A stretch of DNA of 64,000 bases from an uncultured delta proteobacterium (GTDB lineage Bacteria > Desulfobacterota > Binatia > UBA9968): assembly GCA_963727625.1 (NCBI GenBank), contig CAVSHR010000004.1, positions 256,001 through 320,000 on the forward strand. Direction: 5' to 3'. A program made the translations under genes and the position numbers. Positions 470 to 22,158 of the stretch are shown in pieces. Within the stretch, counting starts at the first letter, position 1. Each line of letters begins with the position of its first letter. The notes beneath the pieces were generated by a model. The model was given only the letters and a program-made list of their open reading frames with translations, did no database searches and was not told the origin of the DNA.

Positions 470-1233
470 GACACGCCCAGAGTCAGCGCTGAGCCGAAAG
501 AATTACGGCAAGGAGCGCCGGCACAATAGAAGCTTTCGAAGCGCGACTCGGCTTCGCAGAATCGCACGATGCTCGACGACACGGTGCCGGAGCCCTCGCG
601 ATGGACACAGATGGCATCGCCGGGATCATCCGAATCAACCGCCAATGAATGGTCGGCGAGCACGGGCTGCAACGCCGCAATCGCGTCGGCGCCGCTCATT
701 CGAACGATACGATCGTCCTGACCGACGACTTGGGCGAATAAGGAATAGGCTCGATCCGCCTTGGCGGAATGCAGATCGAACTCGGCCGCGCTGCTGAAAA
801 CATGCAGGCCCGGCGTAAGTTGCCGAATGATGATTTGTTCGGCGTTGTTGTAACCCACTAAAGCGCCGCGCCGGTCGGCGACGAGGACAGTAAAAGGATT
901 GTACCGAAACTGATGGTCTGCCAAAAAAGCATTGCCTTCGGCAACCGATCGGCACCTGAGTAAATCCAGGCAGAGCCGGCCGCGTGAACGGACATCGGTT
1001 ATAGGCGGACTTTCGCCGTTCCAGCGTCGGTTTAGGATGGCGGCGACGACGGCCCGGTCGTTGACGCCCAGCCAGGTGCCGCCGGCGCGCAAATCCACTC
1101 CGGCGACGATCTTCGGTTCGCCGGCCAGCAAATCCGGCGGGGCTGAAGGGCGGTCGTAGTGCTCGTCACGATTGGCGGCAAGCACCAACGGAAAGCCTTC
1201 GAACATGCGAAAAAATAACGACAATGTGCACAC
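466..1233 (-). CDS. NRDE/TANGO2 family protein
   Basis: CTL N-terminus after GTG 1233, LAANRDEHYDRP, DLRAGGTWLG, SRGRL, GTVSSS motifs. Confidence 0.9.
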   Translation of the reverse strand: MCTLSLFFRMFEGFPLVLAANRDEHYDRPSAPPDLLAGEPKIVAGVDLRAGGTWLGVNDRAVVAAILNRRWNGESPPITDVRSRGRLCLDLLRCRSVAEGNAFLADHQFRYNPFTVLVADRRGALVGYNNAEQIIIRQLTPGLHVFSSAAEFDLHSAKADRAYSLFAQVVGQDDRIVRMSGADAIAALQPVLADHSLAVDSDDPGDAICVHREGSGTVSSSIVRFCEAESRFESFYCAGAPCRNSFGSALTLGVS

Positions 1234-1339
1234 AGTCCAAGGTTTACAGAAAGAACGGCAGTTCTGCAAATCTGACCAGCGCTGTTGATTGTCGTCAAAA
1301 GTGGTTTGTGTTAGCCTCAAAAGGTTGGAAAGGGTACCC

Positions 1340-2302
1340 ATGTTTCAATCAGTGGATGAGGTGATCGCCGGCTTCGGCGCGCAAAAATATATCTGCAACA
1401 AAAATGTCGCGACGGTGGTCTACCTGGGGACGATGCTGCAAAAACCCATTCTGGTGGAAGGCCCGGCCGGCGTCGGCAAAACCGAGTTGGGCAAAGTGCT
1501 GGCGGATGCGCTCGGCATGGAGCTGATTCGCTTGCAGTGCTACGAGGGCCTCGACGAGGCCAAGGCGCTTTACGAGTGGGAATACGCCAAGCAGCTGCTC
1601 TACACGCAAATTCTCAAAGAGAAAATCGGCGATATCTTGCAAGGTTCGCAGACCCTTCAAGAAGCGGTGGATTGCGTTGCCAAGCAGGACGGAGTGTTTT
1701 TCTCGGATCGCTTTCTCTTGCCGCGCCCGTTGCTGCGCGCCTTGCTTTCCGAGCAGCGCAGCGTTTTGCTGATTGACGAAATCGACAAATCCGACGCCGA
1801 GTTCGAGGCCTTTTTGTTGGAACTGCTGAGCGATTTTCAAATCTCCGTGCCGGAAATCGGCACCCTCAAAGCCAAACATATTCCGCTGGTGATTTTGACC
1901 AGCAATAACAGCCGGGAGATGTCCGACGCGCTCAAACGCCGCTGCCTGCATCTCTACATCGATTTTCCCGAGGCCGAGCGGGAAATGGAAATCATCAAGC
2001 TCAAGGTCCCCGATGTCGGCAAACACCTCGCCGATGAAGTAGTGCGGTTGCTGCACCGCTTGCGCAAATTGGATCTGAAAAAGACCCCGAGCATCAGCGA
2101 AACCCTCGACTGGGTGCGCGCGCTCACGCTGCTCAATATCAAGCAATTGGACCACGAACTGGTGCAGGAGACTCTCTCCACGCTGATGAAATACGAGGCC
2201 GACGTGCGCAAGGCGCATCAGGAGCTCAAATCCTATCTGGCGGAAAAACAAGCGCAACGCCCAGCTTCCGAGGGCGGCAGCGAAAAAGACCATCTGCACT
2301 AA
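1340..2302 (+). CDS. MoxR family AAA+ ATPase (CoxD-like)
   Basis: Walker A GPAGVGKT, RLQCYEGLD, LLIDEIDK, SDALKRRC. Confidence 0.93.
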   Translation: MFQSVDEVIAGFGAQKYICNKNVATVVYLGTMLQKPILVEGPAGVGKTELGKVLADALGMELIRLQCYEGLDEAKALYEWEYAKQLLYTQILKEKIGDILQGSQTLQEAVDCVAKQDGVFFSDRFLLPRPLLRALLSEQRSVLLIDEIDKSDAEFEAFLLELLSDFQISVPEIGTLKAKHIPLVILTSNNSREMSDALKRRCLHLYIDFPEAEREMEIIKLKVPDVGKHLADEVVRLLHRLRKLDLKKTPSISETLDWVRALTLLNIKQLDHELVQETLSTLMKYEADVRKAHQELKSYLAEKQAQRPASEGGSEKDHLH

Positions 2303-2327
2303 AATTCCTGCCCGACGGATTTTCCGC

Positions 2328-3734
2328 ATGGAAGAGCGTATTGTCGAATTTGCCACGGTTTTGAGACGCAACGGCATTCGTGTGTCGCTTTCGGAAAACA
2401 TGGACGCATTTCGCGCTCTCGGACTGGTCGGCGTCGCCGATCATTCGCTCTTCCGCCATACGCTGCGCACCACGCTGATCAAGCGGGCCAGCGACGTAAA
2501 ACCCTTTGAAGAGCTGTTCGATTATTTTTTCCTGGGCATCGGTCAGGCGCTAGATGCTCTGGACCGGCGCATCATGGGCGAGCTCGGCTTAACGCCGGAA
2601 CAGTTCCAAGAGATGCTCGAACAGACCCAACGGTTGGTCAAGCAAATGGAAGGAGAGCTCTCGGAGTTGACGCGAGCTCTGCTGAACAACAACCGCGGCG
2701 AGCTCGAGCGCCAACTGCGCGAGGCCATGCAACAGGAAACGGAGCAGGGTACGCCGGACAGTTTTCGTCTAACTCCTTACACGCGCATGTCGGCGCGTTT
2801 ACAGTTTGATCGGGTTCAAAGCGAAATCGAGCGCTTCCGGGGCACGCTGCAGATGCTCGGCGAAAACGGCGAAGATCTGCAAAAGGTCCTGCGCTATCTC
2901 GACGAGCGCGTGCGCGACTTAAACCGCCTCCTGCGCGAAATCATCCAACAGGAGCAGCGCAAGAAAGGTTTGGAGCCGCGGGATTCTACGCAACGGAGCT
3001 CGTTGGCGGACAAGAGCTTCGCGTTTTACACCGAGGACGATATCCGGCGCATGAACGACGCGGTGGCGCGCTTGGCGCAGCGCCTGAAAAACCGCCTGTC
3101 GGTAAGGCGCAAAAGAGCCGCGCGGGGGCGCTTCAACGTCAAAGAAACGCTGCGCAAAAATCTCCAATTCGGCGGTGTGCCGTTCAATATCCAGCTCGAC
3201 CGGCGCAAAAAATCCAAGCCGCAAGTGATGGTGCTATGCGACATTTCCGACTCGGTGCTCAACGCGTCGCGCTTCATGTTGCAGTTCGTATATTCGGTGC
3301 AAGATCTCTACTCCAAGGTGCGCAGTTTCGTCTTCGTCGCCGAAATCGGCGAGGTGACGAAACTTTTCGAAGATCACGACATTCAAACCGCCGTGGAGAC
3401 GGCCTTGAAGGGCGACGTCATCGACGTTTTTTCGCATTCGAACTTCGGCCGGGCTTTCGATCAGTTTTACCGCAGCTTTTTTTCGGCGATTAACGGCAAA
3501 ACCACCGTGCTGATCATCGGCGACGGTCGCAACAACTACAACCGACCCAACGATTGGGTATTGCGCGAGATCCAGCAGAAAGCCAAACAGCTGATCTGGT
3601 TGAACCCCGAGAGCCGCATGACTTGGGGCATCGGCGACAGCGAGATGCCGCGCTACGCGCCCCATTGCCACGTCGCTGAGGAATGCCGCAGCATCAACCA
3701 ACTCTATCATATCGTCGATCTGATCGTGCCATGA
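2328..3734 (+). CDS. VWA domain protein (CoxE-like), MoxR partner
   Basis: MIDAS-like CDISDS, IIGDGRNN, WLNPE; directly downstream of the MoxR gene. Confidence 0.9.
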   Translation: MEERIVEFATVLRRNGIRVSLSENMDAFRALGLVGVADHSLFRHTLRTTLIKRASDVKPFEELFDYFFLGIGQALDALDRRIMGELGLTPEQFQEMLEQTQRLVKQMEGELSELTRALLNNNRGELERQLREAMQQETEQGTPDSFRLTPYTRMSARLQFDRVQSEIERFRGTLQMLGENGEDLQKVLRYLDERVRDLNRLLREIIQQEQRKKGLEPRDSTQRSSLADKSFAFYTEDDIRRMNDAVARLAQRLKNRLSVRRKRAARGRFNVKETLRKNLQFGGVPFNIQLDRRKKSKPQVMVLCDISDSVLNASRFMLQFVYSVQDLYSKVRSFVFVAEIGEVTKLFEDHDIQTAVETALKGDVIDVFSHSNFGRAFDQFYRSFFSAINGKTTVLIIGDGRNNYNRPNDWVLREIQQKAKQLIWLNPESRMTWGIGDSEMPRYAPHCHVAEECRSINQLYHIVDLIVP

Positions 3735-5098
3735 ACAAGAAACTCTATATTCAAACCTATGGCTGCCAGATGAACCAATATGATTCGGAGCGAATCGCCC
3801 GGGTCATGGCTCGACAGGGTTATCTCCTGACTGACCGCATCGATGCGGCCGACTTGATTCTGCTCAACACCTGCAGCGTGAGGGACAAAGCGGAGCAGAA
3901 AGTCTACAGCGCTCTGGGGGGTTGGAAAGAGTTCAAAGAATTTCGCGACGATGTGATCATTGGCGTCGGCGGCTGCGTGGCGCAGCAGGAAGGAGAGAAT
4001 CTTCTCAAGCGGGTGCCGCACCTCGACCTGGTTTTCGGCACCCACAACATCCACAAACTGCCGGCGATGGTGGAACAGGTTCAACTGGCGCGCGCCCGCC
4101 CGGTGGAAATCGCTTTCTATCGCGACCCTGCTTACATGGAGGAGATTGTCGGCCGAACCGAAGTGCGCGGCGTCAAGTCCTTTGTCACGATCATGCAAGG
4201 CTGCAACAAAGTTTGCAGCTTCTGCATCGTGCCCCATGTGCGTGGCCGCGAGCTCAGCCGTCCGAGCGCCCATATCGTCGCCGAAATCGAATCGCTGGCC
4301 AGTCAAGGCGTGATCGAAGTCATGCTACTGGGACAAAATGTCAATTCCTACGGCAAGCTCACACCGGGGGAGTTGAGCTTCGCCGAGCTGCTCGCGCGCG
4401 TTGATCGGATCGACGGGATTCAGCGAATTCGTTTTACCACCTCGCATCCGCAGGATCTTTCACCCGAATTGATTGAAGCGTACGCCACGCTGAATCAACT
4501 TTGCGAGCATCTCCATCTACCCGTTCAGTCGGGCGCCGACACGGTTCTCGAACGGATGCGCCGCGGCTACACGCGGGCGGAATATTTAAATCGCATCGAT
4601 CGCCTGCGCCGGCGCCGGCAGGAAGTCGCGTTGAGCACGGATATCATCGTCGGTTTTCCCGGCGAGAGCGACGCGGAATTTGTCCAAACTCTAGAATTGC
4701 TGGAACGAGTGGAGTATGATGAAATTTACTCGTTTCAATATTCGCCGCGGCCGCAAACCGTCTCAGCAAAGATTTATGCCGATGATGTTCCCGAAAATGT
4801 TAAAAAGGTGCGTCTAAAAGAAGTGCAGAGTTTGCAGCAGGCGATATCGTTGCGGAAAAACCGCCGGCGCATCGGGGATCTGGAGGAAATATTGGTGGAG
4901 GGGCCGTCCAAACTAAAGAATGGGCAAATTATGGGCCGCACGCGCAGCAACCGAATCGTCAACGTGGTTGCGCCTGACAGTTTGGTCGGCCAACTTGTCG
5001 CCGTTAGAATTAGCGGGGCCACCGCCAATTCGTTGCTCGGCGAAATTTTGTCGGATAAATCGGAAATGAATTCCCAGTTAGAAGAGGGCACGGCATGA
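3731..5098 (+). CDS. miaB: tRNA-2-methylthio-N6-dimethylallyladenosine synthase
   Basis: TYGCQMNQYDS, NTCSVRDKAE, radical SAM CNKVCSFC, C-terminal TRAM; ATG 3731 overlaps the upstream stop. Confidence 0.96.
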   Translation: MNKKLYIQTYGCQMNQYDSERIARVMARQGYLLTDRIDAADLILLNTCSVRDKAEQKVYSALGGWKEFKEFRDDVIIGVGGCVAQQEGENLLKRVPHLDLVFGTHNIHKLPAMVEQVQLARARPVEIAFYRDPAYMEEIVGRTEVRGVKSFVTIMQGCNKVCSFCIVPHVRGRELSRPSAHIVAEIESLASQGVIEVMLLGQNVNSYGKLTPGELSFAELLARVDRIDGIQRIRFTTSHPQDLSPELIEAYATLNQLCEHLHLPVQSGADTVLERMRRGYTRAEYLNRIDRLRRRRQEVALSTDIIVGFPGESDAEFVQTLELLERVEYDEIYSFQYSPRPQTVSAKIYADDVPENVKKVRLKEVQSLQQAISLRKNRRRIGDLEEILVEGPSKLKNGQIMGRTRSNRIVNVVAPDSLVGQLVAVRISGATANSLLGEILSDKSEMNSQLEEGTA

Positions 5099-5622
5099 TG
5101 AAAAAGGAAGATACCATCCAAATGTCGGTCGGAGGTTTGACCCTGGACCCGGTGACTAAAACGCCGATCGTTATCCTCAAAGACACCGAAAACAAGCTCA
5201 ATCTACCGATTTGGATCGGTCTGCTGGAAGCGACCGCCATGGCCACAGAAATCGAAGGCATCAAAATGGCTCGTCCGATGACCCACGATCTGCTCAAAAC
5301 TATTCTTGGCGAGGTCGGCTGCTCGGTCGAGTCCGTGGAAATTACCGAGCTCAAAGAAAACACTTATTATGCCTTGGTCAACCTCACCCTGGCCGGCCGC
5401 CAGGTCATGATCGACTCACGCCCCAGCGATGCGATCGCCTTGGCGCTGCGCACGAAGAGCCCGATTTACGTTGCCAAAGCCGTCTTGGAAGCCTCCAGCA
5501 CGTTACAGCAAAACGAAGAAGGCAGTGATCGCTCGGTCGAGAATGTATCGAACGTTTCCAAAGAAAAGTGGGCGGACATCTTGGAAAAAATGACTCCGGA
5601 TGATTTTAAATATAAACAATAG
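5095..5622 (+). CDS. Bifunctional nuclease family protein (DUF151)
   Basis: LPIWIG, RPMTHDL, DSRPSDAIALA. Confidence 0.92.
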   Translation: MMKKEDTIQMSVGGLTLDPVTKTPIVILKDTENKLNLPIWIGLLEATAMATEIEGIKMARPMTHDLLKTILGEVGCSVESVEITELKENTYYALVNLTLAGRQVMIDSRPSDAIALALRTKSPIYVAKAVLEASSTLQQNEEGSDRSVENVSNVSKEKWADILEKMTPDDFKYKQ

Positions 5623-5708
5623 GCAAGGCTTCATTTCGTCCTGAGAAGGTGCGTACGACTATCGAACGACTCGGTCGAGATTTCTCCCTGCGCGTTTCAA
5701 AATAACTT

Positions 5709-6392
5709 ATGGCAACCGCAAGCAAGCGAATAACTAGGAAACAACTGCGCCAGCCTGACTGGTTTCAAGTGACCACAGAAAATGCGCTGGAATATTTTAA
5801 CCACCACCGATCCCTGGTGTTCGCCGCGGTCGCCGGAGTCTTGCTTTTAGGCGCGCTCGTTTGGGGTTGGCAGCTGTTCAAGCAAAAGCAAAATCTTGCC
5901 GCTTCGCAGGAGTTCAGCAAAGCGCTCGCGCTGTATCACAGCGAAAAATTCGGCGATGCCGTCAACGCCTTTGAAAGGGTAAAAAGCTATCGCTGGTCGC
6001 GTTATGCGGTCTTGGCCCACCTTTATTTGACTAACAGCTACCTGGCGACCAACGCCCTCGATAAAGCTGTAACCGAGGGGCAACGCTCCGTGGCGGCAAC
6101 CAGCCCGGATAGCCTTTATCGCCAGATCGCGCTTATCGATCTCGCCACTGCCGAAGAACAAAAGCAGCAGTGCAAAGTGGCGATAGGCCGCTATAGCGAA
6201 GCGCAAAATATCCCTGGTCCCTTGCAAGCCAAGGCTCTGCTCGGCAAAGCTCGCTGCGCCGAACAACTCGGGGAGGTGCCGACCGCAATCGCTGCTTATA
6301 AGGAGTATGTCAAAGACAACCCCGGCTCGCCGTATGCTGTGAGGGTAGCTGAACTAGAAGCCAAAGCGGCCGCGACTGCGGCGGCCAAGTAA
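5709..6392 (+). CDS. YfgM-like membrane-anchored TPR protein
   Basis: RKQLRQPD N-terminus, one TM helix, TPR-like helices. Confidence 0.75.
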   Translation: MATASKRITRKQLRQPDWFQVTTENALEYFNHHRSLVFAAVAGVLLLGALVWGWQLFKQKQNLAASQEFSKALALYHSEKFGDAVNAFERVKSYRWSRYAVLAHLYLTNSYLATNALDKAVTEGQRSVAATSPDSLYRQIALIDLATAEEQKQQCKVAIGRYSEAQNIPGPLQAKALLGKARCAEQLGEVPTAIAAYKEYVKDNPGSPYAVRVAELEAKAAATAAAK

Positions 6393-6411
6393 GTTTGCGG
6401 GTTTATATATA

Positions 6412-6439
6412 ACGTCTGATAAGATATAGAAAATTTGAT
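6412..6439 (+). other. Hybrid dif-like attL: intact XerC arm and spacer, degenerate XerD arm
   Basis: ACGTCTGATAA-GATATA-GAAAATTTGAT. Confidence 0.75.
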
Positions 6440-6459
6440 TTTCAGAGTAGGGTAGTATC

Positions 6460-6489
6460 ACGTCCGATCGTCCTCCAATTATGTAACCC
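6460..6489 (+). other. Second Xer-like site with 8-bp spacer (cer-like geometry)
   Basis: ACGTCCGATCG-TCCTCCAA-TTATGTAACCC; 8/11 and 9/11 matches to the two arms of the dif at 8306. Confidence 0.55.
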
Positions 6490-6492
6490 TTA

Positions 6493-7140
6493 CTAATTTT
6501 TCTTATCTCTTTTTTCTACTGCATTTTTCGCCCCAGCCGGGAGTGTTTCATATAAGTTCCCCACTCGCATTGGCATGGATATCATGTACTCGACAATGAG
6601 ATTTACTAAAGGGAAAAGCTTGTCTGCCACCCCTACGTCATCCGCATCGATCTGACCCGGATGTACGGCATTGTTTCCTATAACGCGAACACTATCCAAC
6701 GCTTTTTGCATGGTTGCAGGTAAACCTTTTGACACCAACATTCCAATATCATCATTGAGATTGGTACCCGCACCCCCGAGATGAATGCACAGTTTCTGTA
6801 TTGCTAGACGAAGCAATGCAGCTGCCCCTCTCGGTGAGATCAGCGCGATTTGTGCCGCTTCTTCGTAATCAGCTTTCACCGCCGGTGGCATGTCTGCGGG
6901 TGGCAAAGGAGCCGCGCCCCGATTCGGATACACTATCGAATGCGCGTGCCATATAGATAATTCCCCGCAGTGTTCGCACTGCCCCAAGGATACGTCGGCT
7001 TCAAAATAATTCGGATGGCCTTCTGGAACTGCAGGACAATTGCGAGAGTTCCTGTACCCCCATTTGTAAGACCGGGCATACACGCCACAATGCGGGCAGG
7101 TGAATGCTTTGGTATCACGATCCGGCGCCACGTAGCTCAT
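6493..7140 (-). CDS. Zn-ribbon + DUF4145 (HEPN-like) domain protein
   Basis: CPHC and CEHC; DYEEA...SPRGAAALLRLAIQKLC...RVIGNNAVHPG. Confidence 0.85.
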   Translation of the reverse strand: MSYVAPDRDTKAFTCPHCGVYARSYKWGYRNSRNCPAVPEGHPNYFEADVSLGQCEHCGELSIWHAHSIVYPNRGAAPLPPADMPPAVKADYEEAAQIALISPRGAAALLRLAIQKLCIHLGGAGTNLNDDIGMLVSKGLPATMQKALDSVRVIGNNAVHPGQIDADDVGVADKLFPLVNLIVEYMISMPMRVGNLYETLPAGAKNAVEKRDKKN

Positions 7141-7221
7141 GAATCAAGATCCCCATTCGTGCCGAACTTTCTCAATAATTTTTAAGTCCCTAATTTTAGT
7201 ACTCCAACTATCGGTATCCGC

Positions 7222-7410
7222 GCAAGGCCGTGCCCGAGGAAATATTGAGCGACGATCAAACAGCAGCGCGTGCACTTGCCTTGCAGTGCTCCGCCACATG
7301 AACCTTTTTCCGGACCCGGGAAAACCCTCGGGCACGTAAGAGGGTTTTCCATCGAGTGCTTACCACTCCGAGGCATCGCGCGCCTGGATGCTCCGGGCGC
7401 ACGGTGCCTC
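7222..7410 (-). ncRNA. Candidate structured RNA or ssDNA element (tandem hairpins, two loop-target pairings)
   Basis: Hairpins at 7272-7289, 7319-7350, 7354-7368 and 7370-7410; two loops are complementary to 7222-7228 and 7229-7235. Strand assumed from flanking genes. Confidence 0.4.
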
Positions 7411-7684
7411 AATGAACTCTCACCGATGAATCTGAGAGATTCAGCTTTGAAACTTTTCCGCCACCCTCAATAACAGCATCAGCGATCTCATTGATTACAG
7501 ACGGACCGCCAAGAACGAGAGTAGAGTCACAGAACACGCAATGAATCTCTAAATCGTCCGAACCGAGATCAAACCGTTGAACCCTCAACTTATGGTCGGC
7601 TTCAAGATGACGCCTGATAGCCCGGCGGATCTGTTTTCCCGCTAATCTCATGCTAGCCCTCTGTAACCCTTTGATTTTATTCAC
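7409..7684 (-). CDS. Hypothetical protein (91 aa, basic N-terminus, HCxxC)
   Basis: ORF co-oriented with neighbours inside the dif element; no family recognised. Confidence 0.55.
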   Translation of the reverse strand: MNKIKGLQRASMRLAGKQIRRAIRRHLEADHKLRVQRFDLGSDDLEIHCVFCDSTLVLGGPSVINEIADAVIEGGGKVSKLNLSDSSVRVH

Positions 7685-7733
7685 TCGGTTCTAAAACGTT
7701 TAGCAATCAAGATTAAAGAGAGAATTCCACCGT

Positions 7734-8021
7734 TCACTCTGGCAGTCCTCCCTGTTCGCGATCTGCAGCGCCCTTAAGCTGAGAGATCAGCCGCTTTAGA
7801 CGATCAATGCTCTGGAATTCATTATCGCGCAGAACGTCTTCGAAGAATCGCGCCGCATAGATCAGCACGCCATCCTTAAACTTGATCACACTCTCCAGAC
7901 GTTTGATTTCTGCGTGCAGGCGGGCGAGCTCGCTGCAGAGCGCTCGGTGATTATCTTCAACAGTCCGGTGTTGAACTGTTGCCTTATATTCAGGTGGAAG
8001 AAGCTGGATACGACGGCTCAC
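7734..8021 (-). CDS. Hypothetical coiled-coil protein (95 aa)
   Basis: GTG start with AAGGGG upstream; heptad-like LCSELARLHAEIKRLESVI. Confidence 0.6.
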   Translation of the reverse strand: MSRRIQLLPPEYKATVQHRTVEDNHRALCSELARLHAEIKRLESVIKFKDGVLIYAARFFEDVLRDNEFQSIDRLKRLISQLKGAADREQGGLPE

Positions 8022-8305
8022 GGCAAATTTACCCCTTGGATAAATTCACCGTCACCATTTGCACGGCGTTCAGGTCCTAGTAGACTCTGCGGACCTGTTT
8101 TCTCCGGACGCACCGGTGGAAACTTAACACAACTAGAACGGCGAGGTATTTGCCTTAAGCCCCTCAACAGGCGCGATGTACTTTTCGAACTAGCCGGCCA
8201 TTGTGAGTCTAGCCGCCCCTTAGATAACACAGGGGGGAGACCCTTACAAGAGGCCCTAAACAGGGCGCTTTGATAAAAAGGGCGCTTACCAGTCCGCCAT
8301 AGCTA

Positions 8306-8333
8306 ACGTCTGATAAGATATATTATGTAAACT
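8306..8333 (+). other. dif: Chromosomal dif site (XerC/XerD dimer resolution)
   Basis: ACGTCTGATAA-GATATA-TTATGTAAACT: 11-6-11 layout with a XerD arm close to the conserved TTATGTTAAAT; intergenic; core-gene strand flips here. Confidence 0.9.
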
Positions 8334-8487
8334 TTAATAGATAGCTTCAGTTTGATTCGCTTAAAGATGCCGAACTCTTTCCTGTTTCGCCTTCCCCGCC
8401 ATCTCGTTTGAATATTGACTCGCTCCATCCATGCACGACTCGAAAGCTCATTTCGCCCTCGCGCCCGACCATTAAAGCTACGCTGGA

Positions 8488-9645
8488 TTAGAAATAACGC
8501 CAGAGCCACCATTTCTCGAAACCGAGCTTAGCCCAGTAGATCAGTTTCGACGGGCCCCAGGTGCGCGGCTCGGTGGCGCCGAACGGTGGCCAGCCGGTAG
8601 GATAAATGGTTCGATTAGCAGCGGCGCGTCCAGCACCGTATGCCAGCAGTCATATGGTGTGGAGCCACAAGTCTACCGGTCTTCCTTTGCCGGTAATCTC
8701 AGCGGCCAGGTTGTGCGCAAGCACGTCGGCTTCCTGATGAGCTACGCCGCCGGATTTGGACGCCGGCATGTCGGCACAATCGCCGATCGCGTAGACGTTG
8801 TCCCATTTCGTCCGGAGCGTGTCGTAATCGACACGAATGCCGCTTTCACACTCCGCCAGCCCGCAATCGAATAGCACTTTAGCTGGGCGATGCGGCGGTA
8901 CCATGACCAGCAAATCATACGGAATCCTGTAGTCGTATAGCCCCTTGACTTCCTTGGCTTGGGGATCGATCGACCGGACGACAAATTCGTAATGCTGCGT
9001 GATGTTTCGGCGCCGGCTTTCCTCATCCATCCAGACAATCGGATTACGGTGTTCACCGGTGGGTTCCGGGTCGCGGGTGAAATATTCGATTTGCACTCGG
9101 TCGCGGATACCGCGTTTCTTGAAGTAACTGTCCAACATCCACTGCGCTTCGTATGGCGCCGGCGGACAGCGATATGGCCCGAGCGGGATCCCGACGACGA
9201 CTCGTCCGCCGTTGAATGTTTCAAGCGTACTGCGCAAGCGCATGGCACCGTCGAGCTCCCAGGGATGGATCGACGCTTCGGCAAAACCGGGAACCAGATC
9301 GGGCCTTACCTGCATGCCGAGGGAAACGATGAGATAGTCGTAATCAAGTTTCTGATCCCGCAGTTCAACTTCTTGACGTTTTGGATCGATACCCAAAACT
9401 TCGGATTGGATAAACTTGACGTTGCGCTTTTCCAATAGGCTCAAACTGCGCGTGATGTCGCGTGGTTGGCGCTCACCGACCATGACGAACAAAAATGCCG
9501 GCATGAACAGATGATCGGCCCGCTTGTCGACAAGGATGACGTCATGGTTCTCGCCGAGCTTCCGGCCAAGATTCGTCGCCGCTACCACGCCGCCGCTGCC
9601 GCCGCCCAAAATGACTATTTTTTTTCTCCCGTTGACGGCCGTCAT
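8488..9645 (-). CDS. sqr: Sulfide:quinone oxidoreductase/FCSD-like flavoprotein, probable selenoprotein (Sec at codon 332; 385 aa)
   Basis: GGGSGG FAD motif, YRCPPAPYE, YAIGDC; the UGA at 8652-8650 is followed in frame by LLAYGAGRAA...PSKLIYWAKLGFEKWWLWRYF-TAA. Confidence 0.85.
8616..8645 (-). promoter_or_regulatory. Putative bacterial SECIS element
   Basis: mRNA UGA-CUGC-UGGCA-UA-CGGUGC-[UGGAC]-GCGCCG-C-UGCUA; two-part stem, apical loop 17 nt after UGA with G at loop position 2. Confidence 0.75.
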
Positions 9646-18530: not shown

Positions 18531-19478
18531 TCACTCAAGGACTCCACCACCCCTTTGCCCTCTGCCGTCCTTCTCTCTCGGATGAAACTCCCGGTGAACT
18601 TTTTTCAGCCGCGCACCGTCGACATGGGTGTAAATCTGCGTCGTGGAAATATCCGCATGGCCCAACATCGATTGTACGGACCGCAAGTCCGCGCCGCCTT
18701 CGAGCAAATGGGTGGCGAACGAATGGCGCATGGTATGCGGCGTCACGCGTTTCTCGATCCCCGCAAGCAGCGCGTAGCGCCGAATAATCTTCCAGAAACC
18801 TTGGCGGGTCAAAGGATTTCCCGAGCGATTGGTAAAAATGAACGGGCTGCTTTTGCCTTTGAGTAAAATCGCTCTTCTCTGGTTCAAGTAGCTCCAGAGT
18901 TTGTCCCTGGCCCATTTGCCGAAAGGCACCGCCCTCACCTTCGATCCTTTGCCTTTGACCGTAAGATAATTGCCCTGGAAATTGATTTGTCGGGTCTCAA
19001 GCCGCACCAGCTCCGAAACCCGCAGGCCGGTGGCGTACAAAAGTTCCAGCATCGCCTGGTCCCGCGCGCCGAGTAGCTCGATTGGGTCGGGCGCGCTCAA
19101 TAGCTTTCGCACATCGTCGCCGGACAAAGTCTGCGGCAGCTTTCTTGGCCCGGGAGGGAGAAAGATAGTCGGTAACGGGCTTTCTTTGAGCAACCCTTCG
19201 CTCACGAGAAAAACCAGGAAGCGGCGCAGCGTGACCACGTGACGGGCGATGCTTCTCGGATTTAAACCTCGAGCGCGTAGCGAGCTCAAAAACGCGCGCA
19301 GCTGCGCGCCGTCCACGTCACGCCATTCGGCTGCGCCGTGCGCAAGCAGAAACTCCGCAAGCCCGGCGAGGTCACGTGCGTAAGCGTCCACGGTGTTTCG
19401 GGCCAGCCCCCTTTCCACCGTCGCCACCGCCAGGAATGCGTCAATGGAGGGGCTGATCGAGTCTTTCTTCGGCGTCAT
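18531..19478 (-). CDS. xerD: Tyrosine recombinase XerD
   Basis: RDQAMLELLYATGLRVSEL, TRQGFWK, HTMRHSFATHLL, LGHADISTTQIYTH. Confidence 0.93.
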   Translation of the reverse strand: MTPKKDSISPSIDAFLAVATVERGLARNTVDAYARDLAGLAEFLLAHGAAEWRDVDGAQLRAFLSSLRARGLNPRSIARHVVTLRRFLVFLVSEGLLKESPLPTIFLPPGPRKLPQTLSGDDVRKLLSAPDPIELLGARDQAMLELLYATGLRVSELVRLETRQINFQGNYLTVKGKGSKVRAVPFGKWARDKLWSYLNQRRAILLKGKSSPFIFTNRSGNPLTRQGFWKIIRRYALLAGIEKRVTPHTMRHSFATHLLEGGADLRSVQSMLGHADISTTQIYTHVDGARLKKVHREFHPREKDGRGQRGGGVLE

Positions 19479-22158
19479 TTTGGGGCAGCAAATTTTCGCG
19501 CAGAAATTCACGAATATGTTCGACCCGGACGGCATCCAAGATTTTATCGCCCTGCTCCTCGGTAACGTAAAAGACGTCTGCTACTTGGTCCACGTTGGTG
19601 GAGATTTTGGCGACATGAATCGACAGAGCGAGACGGTGCAGCGCGTAAGCGATCGTAAAAAGAATGCCGATGCGATCTTCCGTGAAGACCTCGATGATTG
19701 TGAAATCATCGGACGCCTCGTTGTCGATATTGACGACGGTGGACACCTTCGGCGCGCGTCGTTGCAGAAACACCGAGGGCTTGGAGGAAGCCACCAGATT
19801 GGCCACATCGATTTTGCCCTCTAAAACGCCTTCAAGCACGATGCGGAACTTCGTCCACTTTTGCTCCACCATCACCAATTCCGGCCGGCCATGATGAGAA
19901 ATTCGAAACACGTCAAGAATCCGACCGTCGCTGGCGGTGAAAATCCGCGCATTAAGAATATCGAGGCGAAGCGAGGTTAAAACGCCGGTGATCGACGCGA
20001 ACAGCCCTGGACGGTCTTCGCAGCACACGATGACCGAGGTGCAGTCGCGCTCGGGATAGTGTTCCACCGACACGGCCGCCTTCTTGCCGCGATTCCGTTC
20101 CATCAGCTCAAAATGACCGGGAATCTCCTCTTCCGGCGTTGCCAGGAAATAGCGCTCGGGCATGGCGTCGAGAAAACTCTCGACTCTTTCTTCTTTATGA
20201 TCTTTGAGCAGCAGCCGACGCACGCGGGCCTGCGTCCTGCGGATCGCGGCGCGCACGTCCTGGCGCTGGAACTCGCCCTTCTCGACCTCTTCCAAGAGAT
20301 TCAAAGCCTTGACGTAAAGCTCGCCCAGCAATGAAGCCTTCCAGGGATTCCAGACATCGGGGCCGACTGCTTTCACGTCGGCGAAGGTCAGCAGAAAAAG
20401 CATCTTCAGATTATTCACGCTGCCCATCGTCTTGGCAAAGTCGAAGATGGTTTTGTCGTCTTCCAAGTCGCGGCGAAACGCCGTGTGGGTCATCAGCAGA
20501 TGATGGCGTACGAGAAATTCGACCAGGGCACCGTCGTCGGCATTGAGGCGCATGCGGTGCGCGATCGGCCGCACCATGCGGGCGCCGATATCGGAGTGGC
20601 CGCCGCCAAAGCCCTTGCCGATATCATGGAACATCAAGCCCAGATAAAGCAGCTCGATCTTTTCCGCCTCGCGGGCAAGCTGAGTCAGCAAGGGCAAACT
20701 TTCAGCATAATCACCGGCGCGCAACCGCTCTATCTCTTTGATCAAACGCAAGGAATGCTGATCAACGGTGTAGATATGATAGGCGTCATGCAGGACCATG
20801 CACAAAAGCCGGCCGAATTCAGGAAGAAAGGCGCCTAGGACGCCGGCGCGGTGCATTTCCAGCAACGTCTCATACACCGATTCCTTCCATTTAAGGATGC
20901 TGAAAAAAGGCAGATTGGCGGCTGCCGAGCGGCGAAACTCATCGTCGACCAGATCAAGGTTTTGGCGCAGCATCTCCCGGGTTTCATGAGCTAATTGGCA
21001 GTTGTACTTCTGCATGTCATCGAAGATCCGGATGAGATTATCGGGACTGCTGCGAAGGACTTCCGGTTTGGTCACTGTCAGGTGGCCCTTTGACAAACGT
21101 ATTCCCTCGCGCAAGTTCCGGCCGAAAACGTAGGATGCGCCGAAGCGTGGCTTGTCGCACTCGGTGACACGGTGAATGATCAGCGACGATAGCCGGCTGA
21201 TCTGCGCCGCATGCAGATAATAGGTGCGCATGAACACTTCGACGGCGCGCAGGCTGCCTTCACGGGCGAAGCCCAGCGCGACGCTGACTTTTTCCTGCTG
21301 CTCAAAGGTCAGCTGGTCTTGATGTTTACCGGTGGAAAAATGCAGTTCGTTGCGTACCCGCAGCAAAAAATCCTGCGAGTCCTTTAGGTGCGCGATGTCG
21401 TCGGTGCCGACGATGCCGGCGAGCGCCAGGGCGTCCAAATCCTTGGCTTTGAGCATGGCTCGAGCGATCCAATGCGCCGTTTGAATATCTCTGAGTCCGC
21501 CCTCGCCTTCCTTCACTTCAGGTTCGAGCAGGTACACCGAGCTGCCGTATTGCTCATGGCGCGCTTGATTCTCGGCGAGCTTCTCGCGGAGAAAACGCTT
21601 GATGCCGTTTTTGAGCAGCCGTGACTCTACCTTTTTCTCGAATTCCTCGTAGAGCGAAAAGTCGCCGCATAAAAAGCGCACATCGAGCAAGGCCGTGCGC
21701 ACCCGCATGTCGCTTTCGGCTAGGCTAATGCAACCGGCCACGCTCCGAGTAGCGTGCCCGACTTGGAATCCGGCGTCCCACAGGGTGTGGAGCAACTGCT
21801 CCGTGAGGGCCTGAACGTCCTGGGACATTTTCCACGGGTAGAGAAACAAAATGTCGATGTCCGAGTGAGGATTCAATTCGCCGCGGCCGTAACCGCCCTG
21901 CGCGATCAAGGCAAACCGCCGGTTAGGCTCGGAGAACTGCTGGCCGCGGTCGGCGCTGATCGCCGTGAACAGATGGCGAATCAAGTGATCGATGACGGTA
22001 GCCCAAGCCGAAGCGACCTCCACGCCGCCGGCCCCCGCGCGGTGTCTTTCAAACAGCAAACGCCTCCCGTCGTAAATATACTTGCGCGCCATCGCCTTAA
22101 GGTTCTGCTCGCGTTGCGCGTCCTTGAGCAAGCCCAGTGAAATCGCTACGGCGTCCAT
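19441..22158 (-). CDS. glnD: [Protein-PII] uridylyltransferase
   Basis: GGYGRGELNPHSDID, KEGEGGLRD, HD domain (FHDIGKG), two ACT domains. Confidence 0.96.
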   Translation of the reverse strand: MDAVAISLGLLKDAQREQNLKAMARKYIYDGRRLLFERHRAGAGGVEVASAWATVIDHLIRHLFTAISADRGQQFSEPNRRFALIAQGGYGRGELNPHSDIDILFLYPWKMSQDVQALTEQLLHTLWDAGFQVGHATRSVAGCISLAESDMRVRTALLDVRFLCGDFSLYEEFEKKVESRLLKNGIKRFLREKLAENQARHEQYGSSVYLLEPEVKEGEGGLRDIQTAHWIARAMLKAKDLDALALAGIVGTDDIAHLKDSQDFLLRVRNELHFSTGKHQDQLTFEQQEKVSVALGFAREGSLRAVEVFMRTYYLHAAQISRLSSLIIHRVTECDKPRFGASYVFGRNLREGIRLSKGHLTVTKPEVLRSSPDNLIRIFDDMQKYNCQLAHETREMLRQNLDLVDDEFRRSAAANLPFFSILKWKESVYETLLEMHRAGVLGAFLPEFGRLLCMVLHDAYHIYTVDQHSLRLIKEIERLRAGDYAESLPLLTQLAREAEKIELLYLGLMFHDIGKGFGGGHSDIGARMVRPIAHRMRLNADDGALVEFLVRHHLLMTHTAFRRDLEDDKTIFDFAKTMGSVNNLKMLFLLTFADVKAVGPDVWNPWKASLLGELYVKALNLLEEVEKGEFQRQDVRAAIRRTQARVRRLLLKDHKEERVESFLDAMPERYFLATPEEEIPGHFELMERNRGKKAAVSVEHYPERDCTSVIVCCEDRPGLFASITGVLTSLRLDILNARIFTASDGRILDVFRISHHGRPELVMVEQKWTKFRIVLEGVLEGKIDVANLVASSKPSVFLQRRAPKVSTVVNIDNEASDDFTIIEVFTEDRIGILFTIAYALHRLALSIHVAKISTNVDQVADVFYVTEEQGDKILDAVRVEHIREFLRENLLPQNDAEERLDQPLH

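Follow-up and report, generated by a model that had tools for sequence, protein, structure and literature searches.

A 1.9-kb RAZR-carrying insertion at the dif site of an uncultured bacterium is probably a Rep-less element that exploits host Xer recombination

A 64,000-nt stretch of DNA from an uncultured delta proteobacterium (positions 256,001 to 320,000 of contig CAVSHR010000004.1, assembly GCA_963727625.1; the whole stretch is here called the window) carries a 1,875-bp segment inserted at the chromosomal dif site. The segment is probably an integrative mobile element exploiting the host Xer system (IMEX) and a RAZR-carrying member, which has lost or never had a replicase (Rep), of a small family of rolling-circle elements. 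It is located at dif, it is bounded by direct copies of dif and a dif-like sequence where relatives have an empty, single dif, and it encodes no recombinase of its own in a host that has xerD and a candidate XerC. By analogy with known Xer systems, we infer that XerC and XerD catalyze its integration; the roles suggested below for two of its open reading frames (ORFs), ORF B and ORF C, are likewise putative.

The segment lies between two copies of an exact 19-nt direct repeat, TAACGTCTGATAAGATATA, at 6410-6428 and 8304-8322. The window holds no other copy. Allowing up to three mismatches still gave only these two, none of 100 shuffled controls gave any match, and the repeat is present just twice in the whole 6.62-Mb, 15-contig assembly. 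The right copy runs into TTATGTAAACT to form a 28-mer, ACGTCTGATAA-GATATA-TTATGTAAACT, with the layout of an Xer site. This complete dif (8306-8333, plus strand) is attR, with the XerC arm at 8306-8316, the central region at 8317-8322, and the XerD arm at 8323-8333. The left copy is followed by GAAAATTTGAT, which mismatches the XerD arm at 8 of 11 positions. The hybrid site attL (6412-6439, plus strand) is composed of the XerC arm ACGTCTGATAA (6412-6422), GATATA (6423-6428), and the non-canonical 11-mer (6429-6439). Both junctions coincide with the boundary between the central region and the XerD arm of dif. An earlier note on this DNA, made from the letters alone, had read the right copy as a complete dif and the left copy as one with a scrambled XerD arm, as found here. 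It had also described the 19-bp repeat as covering exactly the XerC arm plus central region; the repeat stands, and the word "exactly" does not, since arm and central region make up 17 nt (6412-6428) and the repeat adds two bases (TA).

The 28-mer is the dif of this lineage and is located at the terminus, on the grounds of conservation, uniqueness, and GC skew. It is identical in four genus relatives (G006, G013, G008, and the unpublished G005) and differs at two positions in G018, with the same two flanking genes. The 17-mer of XerC arm and central region, with at most one mismatch, was found in 62 of 90 family genomes, mostly as a single copy, and a reversed-pattern control gave no match. 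More than 116 public genome records contain the exact 28-mer. The cumulative GC skew of contig C4, the 1.65-Mb contig on which the window lies, was computed in 10-kb bins and has its maximum in the bin ending at 260,000; the two dif-like sites, at 262.4 and 264.3 kb, lie beside it. Skew was positive in every bin before the peak and afterwards negative in 33 of 34 fully printed bins and in all 13 bins sampled farther out, and the switch of sign is seen within the window too. The peak bears out the terminal position for which the earlier note had named cumulative GC skew as the check.

Some observations concern dif beyond the window. Among the matches listed for the exact 28-bp dif are records labeled Desulfobacterales, Deltaproteobacteria, Syntrophobacteraceae, Candidatus Binatia, and Nitrospirota, which is unusually wide for a dif; with identity on this scale, elements of this kind would have a broad range of potential hosts. 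The public records that best match the flanks of the window dif (L090, L098, L100, L131, L135, and L140) have inconsistent labels (Candidatus Binatia, Chloroflexota, Verrucomicrobiia, and delta proteobacterium), and the label Binatia is tentative for this lineage. In five genomes from several genera of the family (G071, G075, G088, G089, and G096; loci L229, L233, L240, L241, and L244), an inverted XerD arm lies about 10 nt past dif. The layout there is ...TTATGTAAACT, about 10 nt, and a reverse-complement arm ending ...TACATAA, which makes an XerD-arm palindrome.

The 1,875-bp segment is a true insertion at dif, with exact junctions and with empty sites in relatives. The DNA between the repeats (6429-8303) has a G+C content of 50.4%, compared with 56.5% for the whole window, in line with the AT-richer insert of about 1.9 kb described earlier. 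When 4.55 kb around the site was searched in 40 relatives and the source genome, the flanks were matched in 39 of the 41, and the insert had no match in these genomes except in the source genome itself and in an 86-nt paralogue. The flank-to-flank distance is 175 bp in G006, 129 bp in G018, and 217 bp in G013 versus 2,061 bp in the window, and in the genus relatives the TPR gene and the right-flank gene are linked via a single complete dif. Across all 90 family genomes, the insert was matched in full in the source genome (G000) alone, and the other 89 yielded three short pieces (82, 38, and 24 nt). Contexts of dif were inspected at 33 loci, including those of the unpublished genomes G005, G059, and G062 (all three with a complete dif), and at 30 more; the sites G005:C160 and G076, from unpublished genomes, were excluded. 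Half sites, with XerC arm and central region and no XerD arm, occurred in just G000, G011, and G012, and the second set had a complete dif in 30 of 30 cases. Double matches in G105 and G005 are overlapping contigs and involve no insertion.

Both forms of the site were also recovered from soil. Assembled Logan contigs (not reads) of four metagenome runs, with a depth of 2 to 3, were compared with positions 5800-8900. A 370-nt contig from run X1 covers 6070-6428 with 2 differences in 359 nt and then continues into TTATGTAAACT; it has the empty form of the site and contains eleven 31-mers that are not in the window. By its sequence, this contig would belong to a strain about 99% identical to the source. 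A 257-nt contig from run X2 covers the occupied left junction (6268-6524) with no differences. The earlier note had proposed looking for a TPR gene joined directly to one dif, and this is the arrangement in both the genus relatives and the soil strain.

The likely partners for such an insertion are present in the host. A xerD gene outside the element (18531-19535, minus strand) is separated from dif by about 10.2 kb, where the earlier note had placed it at about 10 kb; it scores 345.9 bits against TIGR02225 (cut-off, 329.6). Contig C8 holds an XerC candidate that reaches 331.5 bits (cut-off, 335.15), and the host XerD together with this candidate is the presumed catalyst. The attP site of the element would consist of an XerC arm and central region identical to those of dif, followed by non-canonical sequence in place of the XerD arm. 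Strand exchange by XerC and XerD would take place at the edges of the 6-bp central region, with both the catalysis and the order of exchange modeled on known Xer systems, and full identity of the 6 bp would permit both exchanges. The products would be an attL with the host XerC arm, the central region, and element sequence and an attR with the element XerC arm, the central region, and the host XerD arm, which is a functional dif. Because attL has no adjacent XerD arm, FtsK-driven excision should be poor, while the complete dif at attR should preserve chromosome dimer resolution. Without Rep, the window copy should be incapable of autonomous replication.

Three credible ORFs, all on the minus strand, are found in the insert. 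Searches of Pfam, PHROG, and NCBIfam, with tblastn for Rep, detected no integrase, replicase, or capsid family among them, as the earlier note had also seen. The same note had suggested searching the cargo against databases, and doing so brought out a gene function that it had not mentioned. ORF A (6493-7140, 215 amino acids [aa]) is, by the domains and residues of its predicted protein, a homologue of RAZR (PD-T7-4). It matches the PADLOC model PD-T7-4 over its full length (E = 5.2e-77), Pfam DUF4145 (1.2e-15), phrog_1305 (3.3e-30), and, with residues 9-214 aligned to 10-209, Protein Data Bank (PDB) chain 9y9c_OA (6e-50), an entry described as "DUF4145 domain-containing protein" with 24 copies. 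PD-T7-4 was renamed RAZR and is described as an abortive-infection protein with a Cys4 zinc finger and a DUF4145/HEPN RNase domain, with catalytic residues R146 and H154 (PMC13017515). ORF A has a Cys4 zinc ribbon at its N terminus (C15, C18, C55, and C58) and a DUF4145/HEPN-like domain with R152-x7-H160, and the RxxGNxAVH stretch that holds the Arg and His is conserved in the alignment with 9y9c. ORF A appears to encode an intact homologue of an abortive-infection RNase, which would help the host against phages. Nine other RAZR-like loci had neither a nearby dif-like site nor the element-end motif described below (0 of 9), and they were rejected as elements of the same kind.

ORF B (7409-7684) is a small His/Cys protein with a likely ATG start at 7651, which gives 80 aa. 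H26, H31, C49, and C52 are invariant in five sequences; in an alignment of 26 sequences, H31, C49, and C52 are invariant and H26 nearly so. A word-based search found only ORF B itself. When 1.84 billion representatives were searched with a profile, 32 proteins had E ≤ 1e-3 and, of these, 2 had E ≤ 1e-10; one homologue is 64% identical. Its predicted structure (pLDDT, the model's confidence score, 78.8) had no fold match in the PDB at E ≤ 1e-3 by Foldseek. The intergenic region between ORF A and ORF B (7141-7408, minus strand) contains two strong hairpins, with a predicted fold as single-stranded DNA of -49.3 kcal/mol (z = -2.26), and may be a replication origin or a terminator. An Rfam search of 6000-8800 gave no match at E ≤ 1.

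ORF C (7734-8021) encodes a conserved helical protein of 95 aa. It has 19 metagenome relatives, which are 63 to 78% identical and nearly all about 95 aa long. Differences between ORF C and the copy at metagenome locus L186 number 28, 21, and 62 at the three codon positions, and this concentration at the third position argues that ORF C is a real gene; the corresponding comparison with L185, shifted out of frame by an indel, was set aside. The model (pLDDT 75.5) has a disordered N terminus followed by helices at residues 21-66 and 72-89. ORF C had no match in Pfam, PHROG, or NCBIfam at a curated or significant level, was not found in 185,579 species genomes or in the viral collection, and hit only unnamed clusters in a protein atlas search. 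Between ORF C and attR lies the right non-coding element end (8022-8305, minus strand), upstream of ORF C, in which no ORF has a family match. Its likeness to the related element L188 is limited to the 33 nt adjoining ORF C. It presumably contains a promoter; no sigma-70-like site was found on its minus strand, and a promoter and terminator scan gave nothing beyond the expectation from shuffled sequence.

Relatives of the element were identified by scanning metagenome contigs with the ORF C alignment, which gave five loci (L185 to L189); related elements sit at the same dif or on short contigs from soil. The host genes around L188 are those found in the window (MiaB, a BFN-domain gene, the TPR gene, and a pyridine-nucleotide oxidoreductase), with a flank DNA identity of 74 to 78%. 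Its element occupies 2,168 bp between a complete dif and an attL with the odd arm GAAAATTCGAC. The first 57 residues of a 252-aa protein in L188 are ORF C-like, the only longer form of ORF C found, and the remainder is a rolling-circle Rep (PF23343, 30.3 bits with a cut-off of 27.8; phrog_3419, 3.7e-33). L188 also has an ORF B-like gene, the hairpin region, and, in the place of RAZR, a 111-aa helix-turn-helix (HTH) protein. In L185, a separate ORF C is followed by a 268-aa Rep (PF23343, 32.0 bits against the same cut-off of 27.8; phrog_3419, 2.6e-30) and two ORF B-like genes. L186 and L187 have ORF C, a different 152-aa ORF, and an ORF B-like gene; HUH-like and Tyr motifs were recognized in the 152-aa ORF by eye alone, without a family search. 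L189 (positions 887-3357 of its contig) is a decayed relative in which both ORF C and Rep are frameshifted; its attL-like site, TTGTCCGATAA GATATA, is followed by the conserved end blocks. As a separate observation, the flanks of L189 are AT-rich and unlike those of the window. G011 has an attL of the same kind at a contig end. The gene order of the family runs from ORF C through the HUH Rep, ORF B, and the hairpin region to variable cargo and attP, with ORF C directly upstream of Rep. Since relatives carry Rep, and since tblastn found none in the window and neither Rep type is present in the 98.45% complete G000 assembly, the window copy is regarded as a Rep-less family member. The earlier note's proposal of a minimal IMEX or the remnant of one gains support from these relatives, and a Rep-less derivative of a Rep-bearing family fits the word "remnant."

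The most unusual feature of this family is the arrangement of its attachment region. The non-coding element end at attL (6429-6489, plus strand), which would form the XerD side of attP, is conserved over about 60 nt in all four elements available for comparison (the window element, L188, G011 [L046], and L189), while the adjoining cargo differs. The 11-mers after the same 17-mer in L188 (GAAAATTCGAC) and G011 (GTTTTTTCGAT) resemble GAAAATTTGAT. All four elements share the pattern GATATA, G plus an A/T run, TTYGAY, AGAGYAGG, 7 nt, CACGTC, 14 nt, and TTATGTAA, with constant spacing from AGAGYAGG to TTATGTAA. In the window, these blocks are AGAGTAGG at 6444-6451, CACGTC at 6459-6464, and TTATGTAA at 6479-6486. 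TTATGTAA is an XerD-arm-like motif 50 nt from the central region, and the displaced arm is a perfect TTATGTAAACT in L188 and G011. Taken together, the last two blocks may be interpreted as another Xer-like site, in which an XerC-type arm (ACGTC...) that is half conserved is separated by 8 nt from a good XerD arm. RNAalifold detected no conserved fold in the attP region (-2.5 kcal/mol, 1 compensatory pair), and on this result a CTX-like attP hairpin was rejected. An exact scan of species genomes for the three blocks returned a single record, titled Candidatus Binatia bacterium.

The same dif has received other DNA as well. G012, a genus relative, has a second, unrelated insertion, split over two contigs (C134:55055-56217 [L052] and C42:1-1500 [L043]). 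The contig with the TPR gene ends in an attL, ACGTCCGATAA GATATA followed by AAAGAAAGTAC, and the right-flank contig starts with foreign DNA that ends in ATGTCTGATAA GATATA TTATGTAAACT. The two XerC arms of G012 differ (ACGTCCGATAA versus ATGTCTGATAA), as expected if one is host derived and the other element derived. The foreign DNA contains a ParB-like gene, recognized by eye without a family search, and several unassigned ORFs. A search for half sites in 401 genomes of the phylum gave one more 17-mer, CGTCTGATAAGATATAG, at G369:C1:2533007-2533023 (L252), in another family and without the end motif; it is about as likely to be a chance occurrence as a further IMEX junction.

Part of the element recurs elsewhere in the source genome. 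An islet at G000:C4:1355500-1361500 (L184, about 3500-9500), flanked by genes for an aminotransferase and a sigma-54 activator, contains a tyrosine integrase, a NikA-like gene, a split trypsin-like peptidase, a 230-aa ORF, and a paralogue of ORF B (37 to 39% identity); homologues of ORF B are also the small ORFs of L188 and L185. Beside the islet paralogue, at G000:C4:1359683-1359770, is an 86-nt stretch 78% identical to 7264-7349 of the window, within the hairpin region. The islet has no ORF C. From these likenesses, ORF B and the hairpin region form a module common to an integrase element and the dif element. The 230-aa protein is not claimed as a Rep acting in trans; it did not significantly resemble the L186 Rep, and searches of Pfam and PHROG gave no match.

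Several results weigh against an IMEX of the kind proposed. The known Xer activation factor XafT (DUF3653) was not found among ORFs A to C or the proteins of the relatives, and a six-frame search of G000 with PF12375 gave no match at E ≤ 0.01, which leaves FtsK-independent Xer activation without its known factor. The XerC candidate falls just below its curated cut-off. No circular attP junction or excision joint was seen in the contigs of the four soil runs, which left most of the insert uncovered, and the empty-site contig, given its 2 mismatches over 359 nt, may reflect a sister strain in which the element was never present rather than excision. The clean architecture is not universal in the family, as L189 has no dif within about 900 nt upstream. 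Finally, the Rep-less window copy may be a dead remnant.

The opposite view of the copy, that it is a still-mobile, non-autonomous satellite helped in trans by a Rep-encoding relative or another element, with ORF C and/or ORF B acting in integration or regulation, is possible but doubtful. None of the three ORFs is disrupted, two of them (ORF B and ORF C) belong to conserved families, near-identical strains show both the occupied and the empty form, and a paralogous hairpin and ORF B module sits in an integrase-bearing islet of the same genome. Set against this are the absence of either Rep type from an assembly that is 98.45% complete, the lack of significant likeness between the 230-aa islet protein and the small Rep of L186, and the lack of a circle junction in the soil contigs. 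Arrival without Xer, either by homologous recombination of an already occupied locus or by an integrase acting in trans, in which case the repeat would mark an older event elsewhere, appears improbable. Flank homology of 70 to 83% within the genus makes allelic replacement conceivable, and the genome has other tyrosine recombinases; however, such a route would merely shift the original integration to another host and would still require a crossover inside dif, and the type shared by the window, L188, and G011 and the unrelated insertion of G012 have junctions at dif that are built in the same way. To explain the repeat as a local duplication, as conserved core sequence, or as an assembly artifact is scarcely credible: repeats at the terminus can break or misjoin assemblies, and several relatives do have contig breaks at dif, but the insert is not found in 89 other family genomes, has a lower G+C content and foreign genes, is joined at attL in an independent soil contig with 0 differences, and shares its architecture with the independent assemblies of L188 and G011.

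ORF C is a candidate replacement for XafT, because ORF C is found just in dif-integrating elements and because the ORF B and hairpin module with an integrase of its own, in the G000 islet, has no ORF C. ORF C is retained even in the Rep-less window copy. A bolder proposal, which we consider unlikely as a whole, is that the family hijacks Xer in a new way. In it, a bipartite attP would combine a crossover core with a cer-like, XerD-recruiting site at a fixed distance, ORF C would be a non-XafT factor for activation or synapsis, and defense genes, RAZR among them, would spread through uncultured soil bacteria by way of a swappable cargo bay on the attP side.

Most of the IMEXs described so far are from proteobacterial pathogens (Vibrio, Xanthomonas, Neisseria, Enterobacter, and Legionella), and the element would extend the IMEX lifestyle to an uncultured soil lineage whose records are labeled Candidatus Binatia. 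In full-text literature searches, no paper linked Binatota to XerD or Binatia to Xer. The sole paper that joins "elements exploiting Xer" with Deltaproteobacteria (PMC8138268) is reportedly a general analysis of tyrosine recombinases. A full-text search combining IMEX, XerC, and anti-phage returned only the Vibrio paper PMC12715192. PMC6744903 presents XafT as the sole known Xer activation factor, reported from gamma- and betaproteobacteria. A very small, XafT-less family with an oddly built attachment region would be a compact test case for FtsK-independent Xer activation, and ORF C, if it is indeed the activation factor, would be a marker for finding such elements in metagenomes. With a single-gene defense system, RAZR, on a 1.9-kb passenger of dif, the terminus joins the places of defense-gene exchange.

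Among known systems that use Xer sites, several differ from the window element in their site design. The pdif modules of Acinetobacter are plasmid cassettes bounded by oppositely oriented XerC/D-like sites. The sites in the window are instead direct repeats, chromosomal, and at the terminus. A VGJphi-type attP has a canonical XerD arm beside a central region whose agreement with dif is confined to the XerC side. In the window, by contrast, the central region is identical at 6 of 6 positions and the adjacent arm is non-canonical. The VGJphi-type definition is taken in part from PMC5357621. A CTXphi-type element has two attP sites in inverted orientation, which form a forked hairpin when the DNA is single stranded; here, neither an inverted dif-like copy in 5500-9500 nor a conserved attP fold was found. 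The gonococcal genetic island (GGI) is a 57-kb element with a type IV secretion system and no described rolling-circle relatives, unlike the window element.

Vibrio inovirus and double-jelly-roll (DJR) IMEXs have dif-like attP sites that include 17-bp "left-armed" forms, and close to the attP end their cargo is variable, with anti-phage systems frequently occupying the slot (PMC12715192). The slot adjoining attP is similar here, with RAZR in the window and the HTH protein in L188. These Vibrio elements are full phages with structural genes and the terminal genes xafT and rstR, whereas the window element has neither structural genes nor xafT. The cargo itself resembles Escherichia coli RAZR in its full-length match, its Cys4 zinc ribbon, and the Arg/His pair of the DUF4145/HEPN domain. 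It differs in that its carrier is a dif-integrated mini-element and that its activity is a prediction from sequence.

Integration of TLCphi and the GGI by Xer is described in PMC6744903, PMC5357621, and PMC9226527, and the asymmetry between attL and attR that the earlier note had likened to these elements is evident in the XerD-arm difference at attL. The window element differs from TLCphi in several respects. No DUF3653/XafT was found here; the window copy has no replicase, which is present in L185 and L188; the element is much smaller (1.9 kb) and its cargo is a homologue of an anti-phage RNase; the element end has conserved blocks and an XerD-arm-like motif 50 nt from the central region; and the host is neither a gamma- nor a betaproteobacterium. 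The likenesses concern the site and the overall plan. Like TLCphi, as portrayed in the same three papers, the element is integrated at dif without an integrase and has a dif-like XerC arm and central region with a divergent XerD arm; its attP, as deduced from attL and attR, would be identical to dif at 17 of 17 positions and then mismatched at 8 of 11. Both have an ORF-free stretch on the XerD side of attP and keep a functional dif at one junction, and an HUH rolling-circle replicase and small, putatively regulatory ORFs are found in relatives of the window element, as in TLCphi. A TLC-type IMEX is the closest known kind, and its site logic matches that of the window element.

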